This document shows, piece after piece, positions 4,341 through 35,267 of a stretch of 64,000 nt of DNA (the stretch's first letter is position 1; every line of letters starts with the position of its first letter). Origin of the DNA: a virus. Where the stretch lies: IMG/VR virus record IMGVR_UViG_3300003797_000002. One strand, written 5' to 3'. The notes beneath the pieces are model-generated. The model searched no databases. It was given only the letters and a program-made list of their open reading frames with translations, and was not told the origin of the DNA. The position numbers and the translations under genes were made by a program.

Positions 4341-4886
4341 ATGGCTAACACTTTTTACGGCTCAAGCTTTGCTTTTACCCCAGAAATAGATAAGTTTTTT
4401 GTTGGCTTTGATCCTCTAGTACAGAAACTAGCATCAGCGGCAGAGCAGACAGCAAAGCTTTCTACGAACTACCCACCATACAACATCAAAAAGATTGATG
4501 AAAACAAGTATGTCATTGAAGTGGCAGTTGCGGGTTTCGCGCGCGAAGATATTGACGTTGAACTCTCTGATGGTAAACTAACTATTAAGGGCAATGTCAA
4601 GTCAGGTGAATCTTCTGAGAAAGATTCAGAAGGCGAATGGACTTGGCCACTATTTCTACATCAAGGATTGGCAATGCGTCCATTTACGCGCCAGTTCACA
4701 CTTGCTGATCATGTTGAAATCACTGGCGCAGAACTTCTAAAAGGGATTCTTCGCGTTGGTCTGGAGTATGTCATTCCAGAACATAAGAAACCGAAGAAGA
4801 TTGACATTCAAGACAAACATGATATCCATACAACAAAAAAATCTTCTTCTACCGCAGAATATCTGGCTGAAAGAGAAGGAAAATAA
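4341..4886 (+). CDS. small heat-shock protein (Hsp20/IbpA-like, alpha-crystallin domain)
   Basis: NYPPYNIKKIDENKYVIEVAVAGFAREDIDVEL..LTIKG parallels E. coli IbpA; start at ATG 4341 after AGGAG. Confidence 0.85.
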   Translation: MANTFYGSSFAFTPEIDKFFVGFDPLVQKLASAAEQTAKLSTNYPPYNIKKIDENKYVIEVAVAGFAREDIDVELSDGKLTIKGNVKSGESSEKDSEGEWTWPLFLHQGLAMRPFTRQFTLADHVEITGAELLKGILRVGLEYVIPEHKKPKKIDIQDKHDIHTTKKSSSTAEYLAEREGK

Positions 4887-11839: not shown

Positions 11840-12021
11840 TATACAGAATCAGAACGTTCGATGGTAAGTACCACATTTTTGAGACAACCACTGGGTTTAC
11901 CATCTATTCCTCAGCCGAGGAAGACAAGGTGAAATCTATCTGTCGTTTCTTAAACTCAGGAGGTGGTTTCAATGGAGCCACCCCTGCATTTTTTTGCCAC
12001 AAAGTTGACATTACCGATTGA
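11836..12021 (+). CDS. hypothetical protein
   Basis: TTG start overlapping the gp41 stop; TGA stop lies inside the next TTGACA. Confidence 0.4.
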   Translation: MIYRIRTFDGKYHIFETTTGFTIYSSAEEDKVKSICRFLNSGGGFNGATPAFFCHKVDITD

Positions 12022-14798: not shown

Positions 14799-15425
14799 AT
14801 GAACAACGTAACGAACTTTAAAAACTTCATTGTCGAGTCACAAAACACACTCCATGCCTTTGACATGGATGAAACTTTGTTTACTCACGATCCAGGTTCA
14901 CTCGCTATTCATGTAAACGATGAACATGGCAAGCGAGTGAAGTCTTTAAGTAATCAACAGTTCAATACGCATAAGTTAGATCCAGGTCATTCATATGACT
15001 TCTCTGACTTTAGATCATCTAGCAAGTTGCATCAAACGGGTAAACCTATTCGTAAGATGCTTGCTAAGATGAAAGCCATTCATAATAATGGCGGTAAGGT
15101 TGAGATACTAACTGCTCGGGCAGACTTTGACGATCAGCCAAAGTTTGCCGAGTTTATGAAGAAGTATGGAGTAGATATAAATAAAGTGCATGTTCGCAGG
15201 GCTGGTAATAAGCCTGGTGATCCTGCCGTAAGAAAACGTGATATTGTACACAATCTCATTAATCAGAATGGATATAAAAACGTCCATCTCTATGATGATT
15301 CTAAAGACAATCTAGCACAGTTTCTTTCATTGAAGCAACATCATCCTGGTGTTAACTTCAATGCTCATCACGTAAGTCATAACGATGACACTGGTGAGAC
15401 TACGGTACGCACAACGAAAGTTTAA
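14799..15425 (+). CDS. HAD-superfamily phosphatase (DxDxT)
   Basis: AFDMDETLF motif I, ILTAR motif II, YDDSKDN motif IV-like; same chemistry as the T4 Pnkp phosphatase domain and 5'-nucleotidases. Confidence 0.6.
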   Translation: MNNVTNFKNFIVESQNTLHAFDMDETLFTHDPGSLAIHVNDEHGKRVKSLSNQQFNTHKLDPGHSYDFSDFRSSSKLHQTGKPIRKMLAKMKAIHNNGGKVEILTARADFDDQPKFAEFMKKYGVDINKVHVRRAGNKPGDPAVRKRDIVHNLINQNGYKNVHLYDDSKDNLAQFLSLKQHHPGVNFNAHHVSHNDDTGETTVRTTKV

Positions 15426-15426
15426 T

Positions 15427-15500
15427 GCCGATATAGTATAGTGGTAATACAGTGGATTTGTAACCCTCTGACAGGAGTTCGATTCTTCTTATCGGCACCA
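15427..15500 (+). tRNA. tRNA, probably Thr (TGT)
   Basis: Acceptor GCCGATA/TATCGGC, D arm GTAT-AGTGGTA-ATAC, T arm AGGAG-TTCGATT-CTTCT, CCA encoded. Anticodon loop TTTGTAA, but its stem has two mismatches. Confidence 0.65.
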
Positions 15501-15705: not shown

Positions 15706-15936
15706 ATGAAAATGAAAATATTCAAAGCTTTCAAAGAATCGACAACAGAGACACCAGAGAACATTCAGATTGAAGTTCTAGGTGTTGATGATAGCTGGCG
15801 TAGAGTTGAAGGCGGTGTTCCTAATCGTGCGCAGTCTATTGCTCGTGCATTAGAGTATACCAAAAAGAGATATCCTAAGAACCGAGTTCGTGCTGTTGGA
15901 CAGAAAACGGGCAGGTTCTACGATCTTTTGCCTTGA
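15706..15936 (+). CDS. hypothetical protein
   Basis: ORF only; 3' end overlapped convergently by the endonuclease gene. Confidence 0.5.
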   Translation: MKMKIFKAFKESTTETPENIQIEVLGVDDSWRRVEGGVPNRAQSIARALEYTKKRYPKNRVRAVGQKTGRFYDLLP

Positions 15937-16511
15937 TGTTTATTTTTTAATGTTTCGCTTATTTTTTTCTTAGTCTCTTCACTTGGAACTTTACCAAGTT
16001 GAGCAAGTCTCATTTTTTCTTTTGTTTCAGTTGATCTTTTTTTACCTACATTTTTCTTGTGTAGACTAGTTAAACGATCTATTTCTAGTTGAGTTTTGTT
16101 TCTGTTTTTGTGTGAATCTGAAAGTTTTTTTATAGTATCAGATGATCGTTTCTTCCCCTTGTTCGCAAGTCCCATTTTGATTCTCGATTCTTCAGTTAAC
16201 CCCGATCTTGGTCCTGTGTGATATTTACATCCCACATTTCCAGGTTTAGCGTCTTCCTGTACAAGATTTGCCCAAGATTTAGATTCGACAATATCATTTT
16301 CTTGTGAGAACGAAATAGCATATGCCGTAGCGTCTTCTTGGTTATAGAAGGTGTGTACTTCTAAAGTTATAGGTGTTATGTTATGCGATTTTATGTGTCT
16401 GATCCAATACTGACCAGATCCTTTATATCTGAAAGGATTTTTTGTTTTAGTGTAACCAAAATATTTCATATCACAATGACCACATTGCTTCACGTATAGA
16501 TAAATAACCAT
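15918..16511 (-). mobile_element. free-standing GIY-YIG-type homing endonuclease with NUMOD3-like repeats
   Basis: IYLYVKQC..KYFGYT..YKGSG N-terminal module. C-terminal repeats SEESRIKMGLANKGK / STETKEKMRLAQLGK / SEETKKKISETLK. Sits inside the tRNA cluster as segB does in T4. Confidence 0.75.
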
Positions 16512-29172: not shown

Positions 29173-29336
29173 TGGAAACGGAAAAATCATTCTCATCCTT
29201 TGAAGCACTAACACACTTCTCAGAAGTATATGATCTACTTGACAATATTACATATTATGATCCTATTCGCGGTTGGGTGTTGATTCTCGATGAAGATTTC
29301 GATGAAGATTATGAAGGTCCTCAGCAAGGTTGCTGA
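29172..29336 (+). CDS. small acidic hypothetical protein (54 aa)
   Basis: TGATG junction; overlaps the deaminase 5' region, so one of the two starts is uncertain. Confidence 0.3.
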   Translation: METEKSFSSFEALTHFSEVYDLLDNITYYDPIRGWVLILDEDFDEDYEGPQQGC

Positions 29337-29700
29337 AGCCTCGGAACCGTTTGCTAGGGCCAAGATAGCCGCTGCTCTCGTTTACAAAAACGAAATCATC
29401 GCGATTGGCACTAACAAGAACAAAACGCATCCACTTCAAGGCAGATATGCAAAACATGAAGAAGCTATATATCTCCATGCAGAAATAGATGCAATCGCTA
29501 ACGCACTGCGTAGGCATGATGCTGATACCGTGGCTAAATCCAAACTCTACATCTATCGGTGTAAGTGGACACATAGCAAGAAACCTATGATCACTCAGGG
29601 ATTGGCTAAGCCGTGTGAAGGCTGTATGCGCGCTATTGCAGCGTTTGATATCAAGCATGTTTGTTATACATTAGAGGACGAAGGTTATGAGTGGTTATAA
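29290..29700 (+). CDS. cd: dCMP deaminase
   Basis: HAEIDAI and PCEGC zinc-binding motifs; true start may be ATG 29311. Confidence 0.85.
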   Translation: MKISMKIMKVLSKVAEASEPFARAKIAAALVYKNEIIAIGTNKNKTHPLQGRYAKHEEAIYLHAEIDAIANALRRHDADTVAKSKLYIYRCKWTHSKKPMITQGLAKPCEGCMRAIAAFDIKHVCYTLEDEGYEWL

Positions 29701-30233
29701 TGGGTAAACGAAGTGACTTTGACAGAGTAGAACGTGACTTCTATCCTACTCCGATGGAAGCCGTTCTGCCTCTGTTGCCACATCTGAAGAAGTATTCTAA
29801 CTTCTATGAACCATGCGCTGGCGATGGCAGATTGATTGATCATCTTGATTATCACAATCATACTTGTATTGAAGCATGGGACATTGAACCACAAGAACAG
29901 TGGATTCTACAGTCAAATGCTCTTGATATTCAGTTCAATCCAGTATATTATGGATGGAATATAGATTACATCATCACCAATCCACCTTGGGATCGCAAGA
30001 TTCTTCATCCCATGATCGAACACTTCAGCAATCAACTTCCCACTTGGCTGCTGTTTGATGCAGACTGGATGCACACCAAGCAATCATCCGCGCTGATGAA
30101 ACGCTGCGAAATGGTTGTATCTGTGGGTCGTGTAAAGTGGATTGAGGGAAGCAAGACAAGCGGGAAAGACAACTGTGCTTGGTATCTGTTTACAAATACA
30201 ACAAACGCTAAAACTGTTTTTTATGGAAGGTAA
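29700..30233 (+). CDS. DNA methyltransferase (N6-adenine/N4-cytosine type)
   Basis: YEPCAGDGRL (motif I) and IITNPPW (motif IV). Confidence 0.75.
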   Translation: MGKRSDFDRVERDFYPTPMEAVLPLLPHLKKYSNFYEPCAGDGRLIDHLDYHNHTCIEAWDIEPQEQWILQSNALDIQFNPVYYGWNIDYIITNPPWDRKILHPMIEHFSNQLPTWLLFDADWMHTKQSSALMKRCEMVVSVGRVKWIEGSKTSGKDNCAWYLFTNTTNAKTVFYGR

Positions 30234-31221: not shown

Positions 31222-31384
31222 GATTGGTGATAGGGTGTATGCCACGCGAGATATTGGACTTGTTAACGAAAATCAAGTAGGAACAGTGGTTGATGTTCTG
31301 GAAGATTATCTTCCCTTTCCTTATATCGTAGATTTTGGTGCGGAAGATATGCCATGCAAAGAAAAGGAGATTGCACTTGATTAG
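31214..31384 (+). CDS. small protein with MFKIGDRV SH3-like module
   Basis: ATG 31214; paralogue of 30859. Confidence 0.5.
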   Translation: MFKIGDRVYATRDIGLVNENQVGTVVDVLEDYLPFPYIVDFGAEDMPCKEKEIALD

Positions 31385-32444
31385 GTTTCCCTCTATTGAA
31401 CAGTTCCGTTCCACGATTCATCATGTCAAGAACCATACGCGGTATGCTGGCAAGGATGCTGATGGCAATGCTGTGTATGATCATTCTCGCCCGCTTCCTA
31501 CGCTGAAGTTTCGTGGTACTGTCAAGCTGCATGGTACCAACGCGGGTATCGTGTATGACGTTGCCACCGACACTATTAGCTATCAGTCGCGTGAACGTGA
31601 ACTGTCGCTGACTTCTGACAATGCTGGCTTCATGCTTTGGGCTAAGAGTCACGAATCAATCTTTATTCAGTATTTTGAAGCATGTTTCCACAACGGTCTT
31701 ATGGAACAGTTTGCTCCGCGCAAGACCAATAAAATGCCAACAAAACTAGTTTTGTTTGGTGAATGGTGCGGTGGTAATATCCAAAAGGGTGTTGCTCTTA
31801 CTGGTCTGGACAAGATGTTTGTTGTGTTTGCATATAAAGAAATGTATGCAGATGATGATTCTGTCTGGGCAAACATGCCAAGTTTCATTGAAGTGAGTCA
31901 ACGGGCTGTCCCTAATATTTACTGGATCAATGAGTTTCCTACCTACGAAATCGACATTGACTTCAACTTTCCTGAAATCGCTCAGAACAAGATGATCGAA
32001 ATCACGGAAGCTGTTGAAGCCGAATGCCCTGTCGGTAAGCACTTTGGTGTTAGCGGCATTGGCGAAGGTGTTGTGTGGACTTGCGTCACTCCTGGTTATA
32101 ACGACTCGGGCACTTGGTTTAAAGTCAAGGGCGAAAAGCATTCTTCTTCGAAGGTCAAGACTCTTGCTGCTGTTGATGTTGAAGCAGTAGAGAACATGAA
32201 GGCTTTCATCGAATCAGTTGTCACTGAATCGCGTCTTGAACAGGGTCTAGACAATCTGGTTCGCGAACAACTGCTGCCCTTTGATATGAAGTCTCTCGGC
32301 GATTTTATCCGTTGGGTCTACAATGATGTCGTCAAGGAAGAAGCTGATACCATCGTTGCGAATCAGATTGATACCAAGAAGCTGGGATCTGCTATTGCGA
32401 ATGTAGCACGCCCATGGTATATCCAGCGGTATAATGCCTCTTGA
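31377..32444 (+). CDS. rnlB: RNA ligase 2-like (Rnl2 family)
   Basis: Motif I KLHGTN (T4 Rnl2 KIHGTN), FGEWCGGNIQKGV (motif III), GEGVVW (IV), WFKVKGEKH (V). TTG 31377 follows AAGGAG. Confidence 0.8.
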   Translation: MIRFPSIEQFRSTIHHVKNHTRYAGKDADGNAVYDHSRPLPTLKFRGTVKLHGTNAGIVYDVATDTISYQSRERELSLTSDNAGFMLWAKSHESIFIQYFEACFHNGLMEQFAPRKTNKMPTKLVLFGEWCGGNIQKGVALTGLDKMFVVFAYKEMYADDDSVWANMPSFIEVSQRAVPNIYWINEFPTYEIDIDFNFPEIAQNKMIEITEAVEAECPVGKHFGVSGIGEGVVWTCVTPGYNDSGTWFKVKGEKHSSSKVKTLAAVDVEAVENMKAFIESVVTESRLEQGLDNLVREQLLPFDMKSLGDFIRWVYNDVVKEEADTIVANQIDTKKLGSAIANVARPWYIQRYNAS

Positions 32445-32500
32445 CATTTAATACGAATCGTGTATGGTGAGAATGTAGCAGAGTGAAAGATTGAACAATG
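32441..32500 (+). promoter_or_regulatory. early promoter + leader cassette
   Basis: TTGACA 32441-46 (contains the Rnl2 TGA), ..ACGAATCGTG, TATGGT 32463-68, GAGAATGTAGCAGAGTGAAAG, ATG 32498. Confidence 0.7.
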
Positions 32501-33751
32501 AACTATGAGTTTCCTCACATCACCAACATCGCTGATGTGCTGCCTGCTATTGAAGGTCGTTACGAGTTCGTTGTGGCTGAGAAGGAAGGCTACACGGTCA
32601 TCAACTACAACGTGATGATGTCCGATACGTTTCCTGATGTGCCAGTTGATATGAAGTGGCAGGAGCCTCTCAATCGTATTGCTTTTGGTGAGTACGATCC
32701 CACCGCAGCAATCCGTCGTGAATGTCGTGGTATCATCTTTGATACTGAAACTGGTTATATCATTCGTCGCCCGTTCCATAAGTTCTTCAATGTGAACGAG
32801 CGTGAGGAGACGCAGGATCATGTCATTGATCTGTCGCGCCCTCATGCTATCCTTGAGAAGCTGGATGGTTCCATGATCGCTCCGTTCATTGTGAATGGTC
32901 AAATGATCTGGGGCACGAAGATGGGTGCTACCGACGTGGCAAAGCCTGTTGAGGAGTTCGTCAAGAACAAACCTCAGTATGAGAAGTTTGCTACTTCCTG
33001 CATTGCCAACGGTGTAACTCCTATCTTTGAATGGTGTTCGCGTAAGCAGCGCATTGTTCTGGACTACAAGGAAGATCAACTGATCCTCACCGCTCTTCGC
33101 GATATGCATACTGGCGAATATATCAAACTGTTCGGTGATGGTCGTATCAACCGATTGCATGTTGAAGATTGGGATATCCCTGTCGTCCGTGCATTTGAGT
33201 TCACTAACTATGGTGAACAGAATGATATGAAGGCTTTCCTTGAATACGTCCACGATCTGGAAGACCTTGAAGGGTTCGTGGTTCGTTTTGATGATGGTCA
33301 TATGTTGAAGTTGAAGTGCCATTGGTATCTCCAGATTCACAAGGCGAAGGAAGCTATCCTGCAAGATCGCAACATCGTTGAACTGATTCTGGAAGAAAAG
33401 CTGGATGACATCAAGGCTCATCTGCCTGCCGAAGATCGTGATCGGCTGACTCAGTTTGAGAGCAATATTCATTTTGATATTGCCCGTCGCGTAAGGCTGA
33501 TTGGTATGAAGCTGGAATATCTCCGTGAGCGTGGTATTGATCGTAAAACGTTTGCAATCGATCCGAAGCACAGTGTTGGTGTTGATGCTTTCATTCGTCC
33601 TATTATTTTCAAGAACTTTGATAACGACATTATCAGTGGTCTGAAGATTGGCGAAGACGTTCGCAAAACGATCCGTAATAACCTTGGTCGCACGGCAAAG
33701 TATGAAGCGATCCGTGATGCTTGGTTTCCGGGAGTGAAGTACAATGACTGA
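32498..33751 (+). CDS. rnlA: RNA ligase 1-like (T4 RnlA family)
   Basis: ECRGIIFD, HKFFNVNE, motif I EKLDGSM, FEWCSRKQRIVLDY, EGFVVRFDDGHMLKLKCHWY, all collinear with T4 Rnl1. Confidence 0.9.
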   Translation: MNYEFPHITNIADVLPAIEGRYEFVVAEKEGYTVINYNVMMSDTFPDVPVDMKWQEPLNRIAFGEYDPTAAIRRECRGIIFDTETGYIIRRPFHKFFNVNEREETQDHVIDLSRPHAILEKLDGSMIAPFIVNGQMIWGTKMGATDVAKPVEEFVKNKPQYEKFATSCIANGVTPIFEWCSRKQRIVLDYKEDQLILTALRDMHTGEYIKLFGDGRINRLHVEDWDIPVVRAFEFTNYGEQNDMKAFLEYVHDLEDLEGFVVRFDDGHMLKLKCHWYLQIHKAKEAILQDRNIVELILEEKLDDIKAHLPAEDRDRLTQFESNIHFDIARRVRLIGMKLEYLRERGIDRKTFAIDPKHSVGVDAFIRPIIFKNFDNDIISGLKIGEDVRKTIRNNLGRTAKYEAIRDAWFPGVKYND

Positions 33752-33887
33752 TCGTGAACTTTTGGAAATGGCGCTTGATGACCTTGATTGGGCAAAGGCC
33801 ATGCTTGAGTTAGACGGCACCGATTCGCACGAATGCCTTGATGATGTGATTGCTGCCATCAAGCAGCGGTTGGAAAATAACGATTGA
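33744..33887 (+). CDS. small acidic hypothetical protein (47 aa)
   Basis: ATGACTGA overlap with the rnlA stop; TGA stop inside the next TTGACA. Confidence 0.45.
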   Translation: MTDRELLEMALDDLDWAKAMLELDGTDSHECLDDVIAAIKQRLENND

Positions 33888-33946
33888 CATTTTTTCATAA
33901 TCAGCTATATTGAAAATGTAGCAGATAGATGGAGTGATTCGAGATG
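33884..33946 (+). promoter_or_regulatory. early promoter + leader cassette
   Basis: TTGACA 33884-89, 16 nt, TATATT 33906-11, GAAAATGTAGCAGATAGATGGAGTGATTCGAGATG. Confidence 0.7.
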
Positions 33947-34429
33947 ACTAAGCGTATTATCATGCTCGTTGGTGTTCCTGCTTCTGGCAAGTCCACTTGG
34001 ATTGAAAAAGAGTTTCAAGGCGAATGTGTTGTTATCTCTACCGATAACATTGTTGAAGAAATCGCAGAAGCCGCAGGCAAGACCTATAATGATGTTTGGG
34101 CTAACAGCATCAAAGCTGCTGAACGTATCATGTGGGAAGAGTTTGATCGTGCTGTGGAAACAAAGCAGTATCCCATTGTTATTGATCGTACCAACCTGAA
34201 CGCTAAGGTTCGTAAGAAGTTCTTTGATCGTCTTAAGAACTTTCATCCTAATCATGGTTATGAGATTGAAGCGGTTGTGTTTCCTACTCCTGAGAAAGAA
34301 GAATGGGAACGTAGGTTGAACAGTCGCCCTGGCAAAAACATTCCCCAAACTGTTCTTGACAGTATGGTACAATCTATGCAACAGCCAACATTGTCTGAGG
34401 GATTTTCTAAAATCGATATTTCTTCTTGA
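33944..34429 (+). CDS. polynucleotide 5'-kinase (kinase domain only, T4 Pnkp N-domain-like)
   Basis: P-loop GVPASGKSTW, VIDRTNL, RLNSRPGKNIP..VLDSM parallel to T4 Pnkp residues 1-150; no phosphatase domain. Confidence 0.75.
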   Translation: MTKRIIMLVGVPASGKSTWIEKEFQGECVVISTDNIVEEIAEAAGKTYNDVWANSIKAAERIMWEEFDRAVETKQYPIVIDRTNLNAKVRKKFFDRLKNFHPNHGYEIEAVVFPTPEKEEWERRLNSRPGKNIPQTVLDSMVQSMQQPTLSEGFSKIDISS

Positions 34430-34481
34430 CATTTTTTCGGATCTGAGTTATAAGGAATGAGTAACAAGGAGACTGACAATG
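34426..34481 (+). promoter_or_regulatory. early promoter (divergent leader)
   Basis: TTGACA 34426-31 (contains the kinase TGA), 17 nt, TATAAG 34449-54, AAGGAG, ATG 34479. Confidence 0.6.
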
Positions 34482-34640
34482 TTTGATTTCTATATTATCG
34501 CCTCAGTTATCGTCAATATTTTTATGTTCATCATTTGGCGTCGAGGAGATTTGTTTAACTTGAGCCTCAAGATTCTGTTTCTGATTCTGTCTGTTTCTGG
34601 CGGACTTGTTGTGATAAACAACTATCACCTTATTCATTGA
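34479..34640 (+). CDS. small membrane protein (53 aa)
   Basis: MFDFYIIASVIVNIFMFIIW..; below ORF-track cutoff. Confidence 0.5.
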   Translation: MFDFYIIASVIVNIFMFIIWRRGDLFNLSLKILFLILSVSGGLVVINNYHLIH

Positions 34641-34649
34641 GTATAAAAT

Positions 34650-35267
34650 ATGTCCAATCGTTTTGTAATCTCTGACACTCACTTTGGGCACACCAACTCG
34701 TGGGAAAAGTTCAAGCTACCAAACGGCGATCCGCTGCGCTCGTTCACTTCCACTGAGGAAATGGATGAAGCGATGGTAGAGCGTTGGAACGCTAAGGTCG
34801 GTCCTAATGACACGGTGTATCATCTGGGCGATGTTGTTATCAATCGCAAGTCGTTGCATCATGTCAAGCGCCTGAACGGTAAGAAGCGTTTGATTCTCGG
34901 CAATCATGATATCTTTAAGAATCAGGATTACCGTGATGTTGGCTTTGATACACTGTATGGTGTTCGGGTGTTTGTGGACCAGTTCATTTTGAGCCATATT
35001 CCGCTGCATCCTGATTGTGTGTCTGGTCGATTCCGTGTCAATGTGCATGGACACCTTCATGCGAATGAGGTGCAGTGGCGTCCACTAAATGCCATGAATA
35101 CGCTGGCGCGTGAACCTGATCCTCGCTACCTGTGTGTCTCTGTTGAACACACCAACTATGAACCGCTGTCTTTTGAAGAAGTGGAAGCACGTATTCAGAA
35201 GCGTTGGGCTGATACTGGTTATGCACCTGTTGCTAGGGCTTGGGGTAATGGAAGTGGACCAAACTAA
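34650..35267 (+). CDS. calcineurin-like metallophosphoesterase
   Basis: ISDTHFGH, HLGDVV, LGNHD, SHIPLH, VHGHLH motif series. Confidence 0.85.
   Translation: MSNRFVISDTHFGHTNSWEKFKLPNGDPLRSFTSTEEMDEAMVERWNAKVGPNDTVYHLGDVVINRKSLHHVKRLNGKKRLILGNHDIFKNQDYRDVGFDTLYGVRVFVDQFILSHIPLHPDCVSGRFRVNVHGHLHANEVQWRPLNAMNTLAREPDPRYLCVSVEHTNYEPLSFEEVEARIQKRWADTGYAPVARAWGNGSGPN

Follow-up and report, generated by a model that had tools for sequence, protein, structure and literature searches.

Organization of the gene array

The DNA analysed here (the window) is a 64,000-nucleotide stretch of IMG/VR virus record IMGVR_UViG_3300003797_000002, and this study concerns an array of four of its genes, which encode an Rnl2-like ATP-dependent RNA ligase (31377..32444, 355 residues), an Rnl1-like RNA ligase (32498..33751, 417 residues), a stand-alone P-loop kinase of the polynucleotide-kinase type (33944..34429, 161 residues) and a binuclear metallophosphoesterase (MPE) of the aq_1665 type (34650..35267, 205 residues). 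The array is probably a split, multi-protein system with which a T4-like phage heals and seals broken RNA, most likely tRNA. All four open reading frames (ORFs) lie on the plus strand at the positions proposed in a first-pass annotation of the same sequence, and the ORFs and the families assigned to them there were confirmed by their coordinates, by matches in Pfam, PHROG and the Protein Data Bank (PDB) and by intact motifs; searches with profile hidden Markov models and structures place both ligase-like ORFs within RNA ligase families.

The phage is T4-like, with genes for a gp43-type DNA polymerase, UvsX, a gp41-type helicase and NrdA. A megablast search of the array region against 50,697 GenBank phage records returned no match and no close relative and, by this sequence criterion, it is not a described phage. 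A cd gene (29290–29700) is found just upstream of the array.

The RNA ligases and the kinase

The Rnl1-like ligase matches the PF09511 RNA_lig_T4_1 family (E 5e-35, 121.8 bits against a cut-off of 28.3), phrog_562 (2e-72) and the T4 Rnl1 structures 2c5u and 5tt6 (E ∼2e-23). Its motif I, EKLDGS, comprises residues 120–125 and includes K121, and the PIFEW, LEGFVV and LKLK elements align with motifs of T4 Rnl1, completing the set of nucleotidyltransferase motifs (I, III, IV and V). The alignment with T4 Rnl1 reaches residue 357, the match to T4_Rnl1_C (PF20819), the tRNA-specificity domain, is weak (20.4 bits, E 7e-4, cut-off 27), and the threshold of the stricter Rnl1 equivalog, TIGR02308, is missed at 149 bits against a cut-off of 242.

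The ORF of the Rnl2-like ligase starts at a TTG codon preceded by AAGGAGA. Its product matches PF09414 RNA_ligase (E 7.9e-14, 52.6 bits against a cut-off of 27) and phrog_548 (9e-64), and carries motif I, KLHGTN, at residues 50–55 (K50) in addition to FGEWCG, GEGVVW and FKVKG. Residues K50, H52, G53, N55, E129, E230, K249 and K251, which belong to motifs I, III, IV and V, are invariant over 27 homologues, and the sole PDB match of the profile built from these homologues is T4 Rnl2, with the motif I region aligned. This fold assignment is supported by an AlphaFold2 model (predicted local distance difference test score, pLDDT, 81.6) with an all-helical C-terminal domain, for which the best Foldseek matches are full-length T4 Rnl2 structures (2hvr/2hvq, E 9e-12 to 1e-9, ∼377 columns) followed by the trypanosome editing ligase TbREL1. 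The template modelling (TM) score against T4 Rnl2 is only 0.44–0.49, which is probably due to the domain orientation in the model. The score against the strict Rnl2 equivalog model TIGR02307 is far below threshold (39 bits, cut-off 197), and the protein is therefore named Rnl2-like rather than canonical Rnl2.

The kinase matches the AAA_33 family (E 3.8e-20), and its best relatives of solved structure are the kinase domains of T4 Pnk (1ly1, 2e-6) and of Clostridium thermocellum Pnkp (CthPnkp; 4gp7, 6e-5). It aligns only with residues 2–145 of the 301-residue T4 PseT and ends after the kinase domain; in T4 PseT the PF25109 HAD_PNKP domain then occupies residues 159–301. The kinase-only architecture proposed in the first-pass annotation is thus upheld, and it is shared by the best 120 of 459 homologues, which are all stand-alone proteins of 122–173 residues with only P-loop-kinase Pfam domains and among which there are no fusions. 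The characteristic motifs are present (GVPASGKST, D34, R124 and R128), and residues G10, P12, G15, K16, T18, D34, R124 and R128 are invariant over 11 family members including T4, so that the family keeps the P-loop, the catalytic aspartate (T4 D35) and the lid arginines (T4 R122 and R126). Two paralogous AAA_33 kinases are found in the metagenomic relatives L008 and L009 (3730–4197 and 6001–6483, 49% and 63% identical to that of the window), one of them placed after Rnl1 and the other before the MPE.

The metallophosphoesterase

The MPE matches phrog_547 (2e-52), and its family profile aligns over the full length of PDB entry 1xm7 (E 5e-11), the sole significant match. This entry is the uncharacterised Aquifex protein aq_1665, and a literature search for 1XM7 found nothing. 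The score against Pfam PF12850 is 25.4, just under the cut-off of 27. The metal-binding motifs are complete (SDTHFGH, GD, GNHD, H116 and HGHLH), and in a set of 45 kinase-linked MPE homologues each of S8, D9, H11, H14, R30, D61, N85, H86, D87, H116, H135 and H137 is conserved in at least 90%. The histidine of the GNH(D/E) motif, which is a determinant of 2′,3′-cyclic phosphodiesterase activity in the MPE superfamily (PMC3675462), is retained in the window. The C-terminus of the protein, WGNGSGPN (encoded at 35244–35264), is near-invariant in the clade and absent from distant family members.

Gene neighbourhoods of the kinase

A scan of IMG/VR with the kinase alignment yielded 80 loci with kinases of 39–80% identity. 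An MPE homologue is found in 51 of these loci, always on the same strand and in both gene orders, and the gap between the two genes is at most 1 kb in 35 loci and at most 150 bp in 18. When the kinases are clustered at 70% identity, half of the clusters (16/32) have an MPE and 11/32 have it within 1 kb. As an internal control, all same-strand neighbours within 4 kb of the kinase were clustered; the MPE family was present in 47 loci, a DSP/PTP-like Cys phosphatase in 45 and a short PF09511 ligase of ∼308 residues in 39, and the next commonest family in 14.

The linkage of kinase and ligase extends to phages in GenBank. The kinase gene lies directly downstream of, or overlaps, that of Rnl1 in Cr30, DSS3P8, vB_RpoS-V10, MD18, RcXuper, RpAliso, vB_OspM_OC, BUCT-ZZ01 and RHph_I1_18, the cluster in the last of these also holding a CCA-adding enzyme, a Thg1-like gene and two tRNAs. 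The same adjacency or overlap is seen in the metagenomic relatives L008, L010, L012 and L095. In L095 the gene order is Rnl2, Rnl1, kinase and MPE, with an 8-nt overlap of the kinase and MPE genes; in L012 the Rnl1, a 59-residue ORF, kinase and MPE genes are contiguous, and in L010 the order is Rnl2, Rnl1, kinase, DNA ligase and MPE. This recurrence in phages and metagenomic contigs bears out the proposal, made in the first-pass annotation, that the array is an RNA healing-and-sealing module, and we assign the Rnl1-like ligase and the kinase as an RNA-repair pair with high confidence. The linkage of ligase, kinase and MPE genes is itself a direct observation, as are the family identities and catalytic motifs described above.

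The neighbourhoods also bear on the enzyme that would heal the 3′ end. In five loci (L024, L027, L049, L063 and L075) a stand-alone PF25109 HAD_PNKP gene is found within 1.5 kb of the kinase and there is no MPE within 5 kb; a stand-alone HAD_PNKP is likewise carried by DSS3P8. In Bacillus phage PBC2 the kinase itself (gp158) has a C-terminal HD-like extension, and its gene follows an RNA ligase gene. An MPE and a stand-alone T4-type HAD phosphatase beside the kinase are thus apparently mutually exclusive, and the phosphoesterase partner of the kinase appears to be interchangeable between MPE, HAD and HD types.

Two further proteins accompany the kinase and MPE in many uncultivated phages, namely a Cys phosphatase of ∼160 residues with the motif HCxxGxxRS (weak DSPc, PTP-SAK and Tc-R-P matches) and the short (∼308 residues) Rnl1-type ligase, which lacks the T4 C-terminal domain. 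Both occur in L026, L033–L037, L043, L044, L046, L052, L066 and others, and neither gene is found in the window. A 472-residue DUF2828/DUF7788 (vWA-like) protein is encoded near the kinase in 11 loci, for example at 4850–6274 of L020. Two apparent associations were discarded: the 341-residue ORF downstream of the MPE in BUCT-ZZ01 is not an Rnl2 homologue, and gp033 of Cr30, an MPE beside Rnl2, is not homologous to that of the window, the true Cr30 homologue being encoded ∼22 kb away.

A quite improbable alternative, in our assessment, is that the kinase and MPE form a general end-processing pair that acts mainly on DNA ends bearing 5′-OH and 3′-phosphate groups, together with a DNA ligase. T4 Pnkp is active on DNA as well as RNA, DNA ligase genes lie a few kb from the kinase in L010, L019, PBC2, RHph_I1_18 and DSS3P8, a DenV-like gene is located just downstream of the array in the window, and the MPE weakly matches TIGR04123 (PdeM, a ligase-associated DNA-damage-response endonuclease; 32.6 bits against a cut-off of 150). 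However, it is an RNA ligase of the Rnl1 type that constantly accompanies the kinase (39/80 loci versus 2/80 for a DNA ligase), the kinase loci are rich in tRNA genes, and a tblastn search of the window detected no DNA ligase.

The tRNA content of the kinase loci amounts to 3.6 tRNA genes per 10 kb, with at least five tRNA genes in 29/80 loci. In many contigs the cassette lies inside or beside large phage tRNA arrays, and this raises the alternative that the enzymes mature or turn over the tRNAs or other RNAs of the phage itself as housekeeping functions rather than countering a nuclease. We regard this as highly improbable: phage tRNA maturation is not known to include any step for which a 5′ kinase, a 3′ phosphoesterase and an ATP-dependent ligase are all required, the tRNA genes of the window number only three (Asn, Thr and Pro, at 13.1–15.7 kb) and lie 16–18 kb away, and the characterised T4 precedent is the repair of host tRNA-Lys cut by PrrC.

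Among the kinase contigs, large tRNA arrays are found in L060 (38 tRNA genes in 20 kb), L037 (21) and L057 (17 and a tmRNA), and L036 has an amber-suppressor-like tRNA with a CTA anticodon, called Pyl by ARAGORN. In the window, an ORF with a NUMOD3 motif (homing-endonuclease-like; 15918–16511, minus strand) is located just past the tRNA-Thr and tRNA-Pro genes.

Gene neighbourhoods of the MPE

The linkage in the reverse direction is weak, and this is one of several observations that weigh against 3′ healing by the MPE and against the four genes being a fixed unit. In a set of 80 loci centred on MPEs that are 62–100% identical to that of the window, a kinase is found within 1.5 kb upstream of the MPE in only 13/63 eligible loci and within 4 kb of it in 13/47, and only about one-fifth to one-quarter of the loci of close MPE homologues have a kinase or ligase. 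A common upstream neighbour of the MPE gene is that of a gp41-type replicative helicase. In L097–L103 the MPE is 91–96% identical to that of the window and there is no kinase or ligase in the flanking sequence (3.4–8 kb upstream and 0.9–8 kb downstream). In these loci and in L141–L150, relatives that lack the kinase and ligase, an HD_4 gene (RelA/SpoT-type HD) lies 107–1106 bp downstream of the MPE, with which it may form a pair that degrades nucleotide signals.

The MPE is also better conserved and far more abundant than its neighbours in the array. Its identity to relatives is 83%, 73% and 69%, compared with 63%, 60% and 51% for the kinase; it matches at least 7954 protein clusters versus 459 for the kinase, and 1935 GenBank phage records versus 173. 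Within the clade of the window the MPE behaves as a backbone gene, and the genes for Rnl1 and the kinase appear to be a variable insertion. Among 80 loci of bacterial MPE homologues, a kinase homologue is nearby in 2, an Rnl1-type ligase in none and no RNA-repair context was seen; the Paenibacillus homologue sits in a housekeeping region. Structure adds little to the case for 3′ healing, with no PDB match of the MPE to the λ-phosphatase/CthPnkp clade up to E 10 and a poor structure model (pLDDT 62.7) from a shallow alignment (74–92% identity), whose Foldseek hits (LpxH, TM ∼0.3) were discarded as meaningless.

Two other members of the array contribute to the same side of the argument. The arginine of the DxxR motif, which binds the acceptor nucleotide (T4 R38, CthPnkp R41), is Val37 in the kinase of the window and Ile or Val in the other aligned family members; R38 is essential in T4 Pnk. 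The Rnl2 gene is linked to other repair genes only in the near relatives of the window and, loosely, in Cr30, and by this comparison the four-gene array is lineage-specific. The segment 31096–32461 of the window, comprising the Rnl2-like gene and the small ORFs that precede it, is missing from the close relatives L013, L015 and L127–L132, where the flanks are 93–95% identical, and is present in L095. Sequence comparison therefore identifies the Rnl2-like gene as recently gained or lost between two promoter cassettes.

These observations raise the alternative that the RNA-repair unit consists of Rnl1 and the kinase alone, or of these two and Rnl2, and that the MPE is a backbone enzyme of the clade residing at an insertion spot. 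Its task might then be to hydrolyse cyclic or other nucleotide signals, to scavenge nucleotides or to dephosphorylate proteins, and 3′ healing would be provided from outside the window or not at all. The weak reverse linkage, the highly similar MPEs with HD_4 and no kinase or ligase, the helicase neighbour, the conservation and abundance of the MPE and the bacterial contexts are all in line with this, as is the prediction by Iyer et al. (2021, PMC7824862) that some of the calcineurin-like and HD enzymes of phages have counter-nucleotide roles. However, the adjacency of kinase and MPE occurs in both orders over distant lineages (MPE identity 29–55%) and outside the clade of the window, in BUCT-ZZ01 and phiN3, no MPE is found where a HAD_PNKP gene adjoins the kinase, and the overlap of the kinase and MPE genes in L095 suggests co-translation. 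On balance we consider a mere backbone role for the MPE rather unlikely.

The first-pass annotation had suggested that the MPE may take over the 3′-end-healing role. This was only partly sustained: the linkage seen from the kinase to the MPE and the exclusion of HAD speak for it, and the scarcity of kinases near MPE homologues speaks against it. Given the gene neighbourhoods, the chances are about even that the MPE is the 3′ healer of the Rnl1/kinase pair, replacing the T4 HAD phosphatase domain in trans. Because the reverse linkage is weak and the bacterial homologues have no repair context, we treat 3′ healing by the MPE as a good inference rather than a demonstrated function.

Other candidate 3′ healers in the window

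In a tblastn search of the 64-kb window, no T4-type phosphatase (PF25109-like), HD, PTP or second MPE was found. The first-pass annotation had named a HAD protein encoded at 14799–15425 as an alternative source of the 3′ phosphatase. This ORF exists, with a DMDET motif, and ends 1 nt before the tRNA-Thr gene at 15427; its candidacy was rejected, as the protein has no PF25109 HAD_PNKP match and no BLASTP similarity to T4 PseT or DSS3P8 gp099, its family profile has no PDB match up to E 10, and its homologues are fused to Glyco_hydro_19 (chitinase/lysozyme-like) and LysM domains. The sole hint in its favour comes from phrog_415, a family labelled ‘polynucleotide kinase’, which it matches at E 2e-11. 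The protein has 835 homologue hits, which are often domains of proteins of 300–1300 residues with Glyco_hydro_19 and LysM. This domain context points away from RNA repair and towards a role associated with the envelope or virion.

Promoter-like cassettes and small ORFs

The sequence TTGACATT-N14-TA occurs 13 times in the window, always on the plus strand, compared with 0.37 expected occurrences. The longer promoter-like cassette, TTGACATTT..CGAATCGTGTATGGT, often followed by GAAAATGTAGCAGA, precedes many small genes, with copies on the plus strand at 12018, 12276, 17666, 27841, 30800, 32441, 33884, 61573, 62127, 62607 and 63687. With their conserved spacer and downstream element, the cassettes look like a family of phage early promoters. 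One copy of this repeated cassette lies upstream of Rnl1 (32441..32468, plus strand, TTGACA-16-TATGGT) and another upstream of the kinase (33884..33911, plus strand, TTGACA-16-TATATT). A third and weaker copy (34426..34454, plus strand, TTGACA-17-TATAAG), missed by the consensus scan and read directly from the sequence, overlaps the stop codon of the kinase gene and precedes a 53-residue membrane ORF and the MPE. The claim that Rnl1, the kinase and the membrane ORF with the MPE each have a cassette of their own thus holds at the sequence level, with the reservation that the third copy is the weaker one.

Two small ORFs, both on the plus strand, are interspersed with the repair genes. The first, of 47 residues, is located between Rnl1 and the kinase (33744..33887), has no family match, and is 91–100% conserved in close relatives and 47% in L095. 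The second, of 53 residues (34479..34640), has two hydrophobic segments and is predicted to be a small membrane protein; it is 98–100% conserved among close relatives and missing in L095 and L012, in which the kinase gene directly adjoins or overlaps that of the MPE. SPFH/Band-7 genes are found near the MPE or repair genes in L012, L005, L006 and L095 and in 23 of the MPE-centred loci; in the window, tblastn detected no Band-7 homologue, and no CCA-adding enzyme or Thg1 gene either.

Proposed mechanism and significance

For the array as an RNA healing-and-sealing system, we infer what the kinase and the MPE act on, in which order the steps take place and that the purpose is anti-defence. The 161-residue kinase would phosphorylate the 5′-OH end of the broken RNA, after which the MPE, as the candidate 2′,3′-cyclic phosphodiesterase and 3′-phosphatase, would open the cyclic phosphate and remove it to leave a 3′-OH. 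The Rnl1-like ligase would then seal breaks in single-stranded loops, with the Rnl2-like ligase as an optional extra sealer of nicks in duplex RNA. By analogy with T4, the array may plausibly serve as a counter-defence against host anticodon nucleases.

More broadly, the kinase–MPE pair, often accompanied by an Rnl1-type ligase, a DSP/PTP-like phosphatase and tRNA arrays, may constitute a widespread RNA-repair system in which an MPE of the aq_1665 type has displaced the HAD domain of T4 Pnkp as the healer of 2′,3′-cyclic phosphate and 3′-phosphate ends; we advance this tentatively, at a likelihood a little below even. Phages classically answer host anticodon nucleases by healing and sealing RNA, and defences that cleave tRNA are now recognised as common. 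If the MPE is indeed the 3′ healer, this would be the first function for phrog_547, a very abundant family of phage phosphoesterases, and MPE would stand alongside HAD and HD as a third independent phage solution to 3′ healing. The kinase, MPE and Rnl1 would then also offer a compact kit for reconstitution and possibly reagents for RNA-end repair. If it is not, what remains is ordinary, namely a split Pnk and a pair of RNA ligases in a T4-like phage.

Comparison with known RNA-repair systems

The closest parallel, also in the way the array would work, is tRNA repair in T4 by Pnkp (pseT) and Rnl1 (rnlA). The ligases of the window belong to the same families (PF09511 and the Rnl2 fold), and its kinase shares with T4 Pnkp the fold, the P-loop, the aspartate and the two lid arginines. 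All repair genes are early in both phages, and in T4, too, rnlA and pseT lie close together and not far from cd; the clustering in the array is therefore partly inherited synteny. Several features differ. The Rnl2 gene of T4 (24.1) lies elsewhere in the genome, whereas in the window the Rnl2 and Rnl1 genes are adjacent. Unlike T4 Pnkp, the kinase of the window is a separate protein without the HAD_PNKP domain and without the DxxR arginine, and, where T4 has a HAD phosphatase domain, the candidate 3′ healer is an unrelated MPE encoded in trans.

The first-pass annotation had likened the array to bacterial Pnkp/Hen1 repair. The combination of enzymes supports this, as CthPnkp also comprises a P-loop kinase, a binuclear MPE and an ATP-dependent ligase; the type of MPE does not, since that of CthPnkp is λ-phosphatase-like whereas that of the window is of the aq_1665 type and has no detectable similarity to it. 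CthPnkp is moreover one polypeptide, whereas the window has three separate proteins with a ligase of the T4 Rnl1 type. No Hen1 partner was identified in the window, where no dedicated search for one was run; a methyltransferase-like ORF (29691–30233) matches a phage DNA methyltransferase family. In architecture the array thus resembles a disassembled bacterial Pnkp, a likeness that we take as analogy only.

A literature search did not find a description or biochemical test of the aq_1665-type kinase–MPE pair of T4-like and uncultivated phages. That calcineurin-like domains can serve as the phosphatase in phage RNA repair has already been predicted for jumbo phages in a survey (Iyer et al. 2021, PMC7824862). 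Split kinases of the same clade as that of the window (33–39% identity), likewise encoded beside an RNA ligase, are found in Roseobacter phage DSS3P8 and Bacillus phage PBC2. In DSS3P8 a stand-alone HAD_PNKP and a stand-alone kinase (gp099 and gp106) are present, so that the partner is a HAD protein where here it is an MPE; in PBC2 gp158 the partner is an HD-like region. Burroughs and Aravind in 2016 reportedly described a ‘syntax’ of RNA repair in which ligase, kinase and phosphoesterase modules are combined with domain displacement. The array of the window likewise combines ligase, kinase and phosphoesterase modules with domain displacement, in keeping with that syntax.

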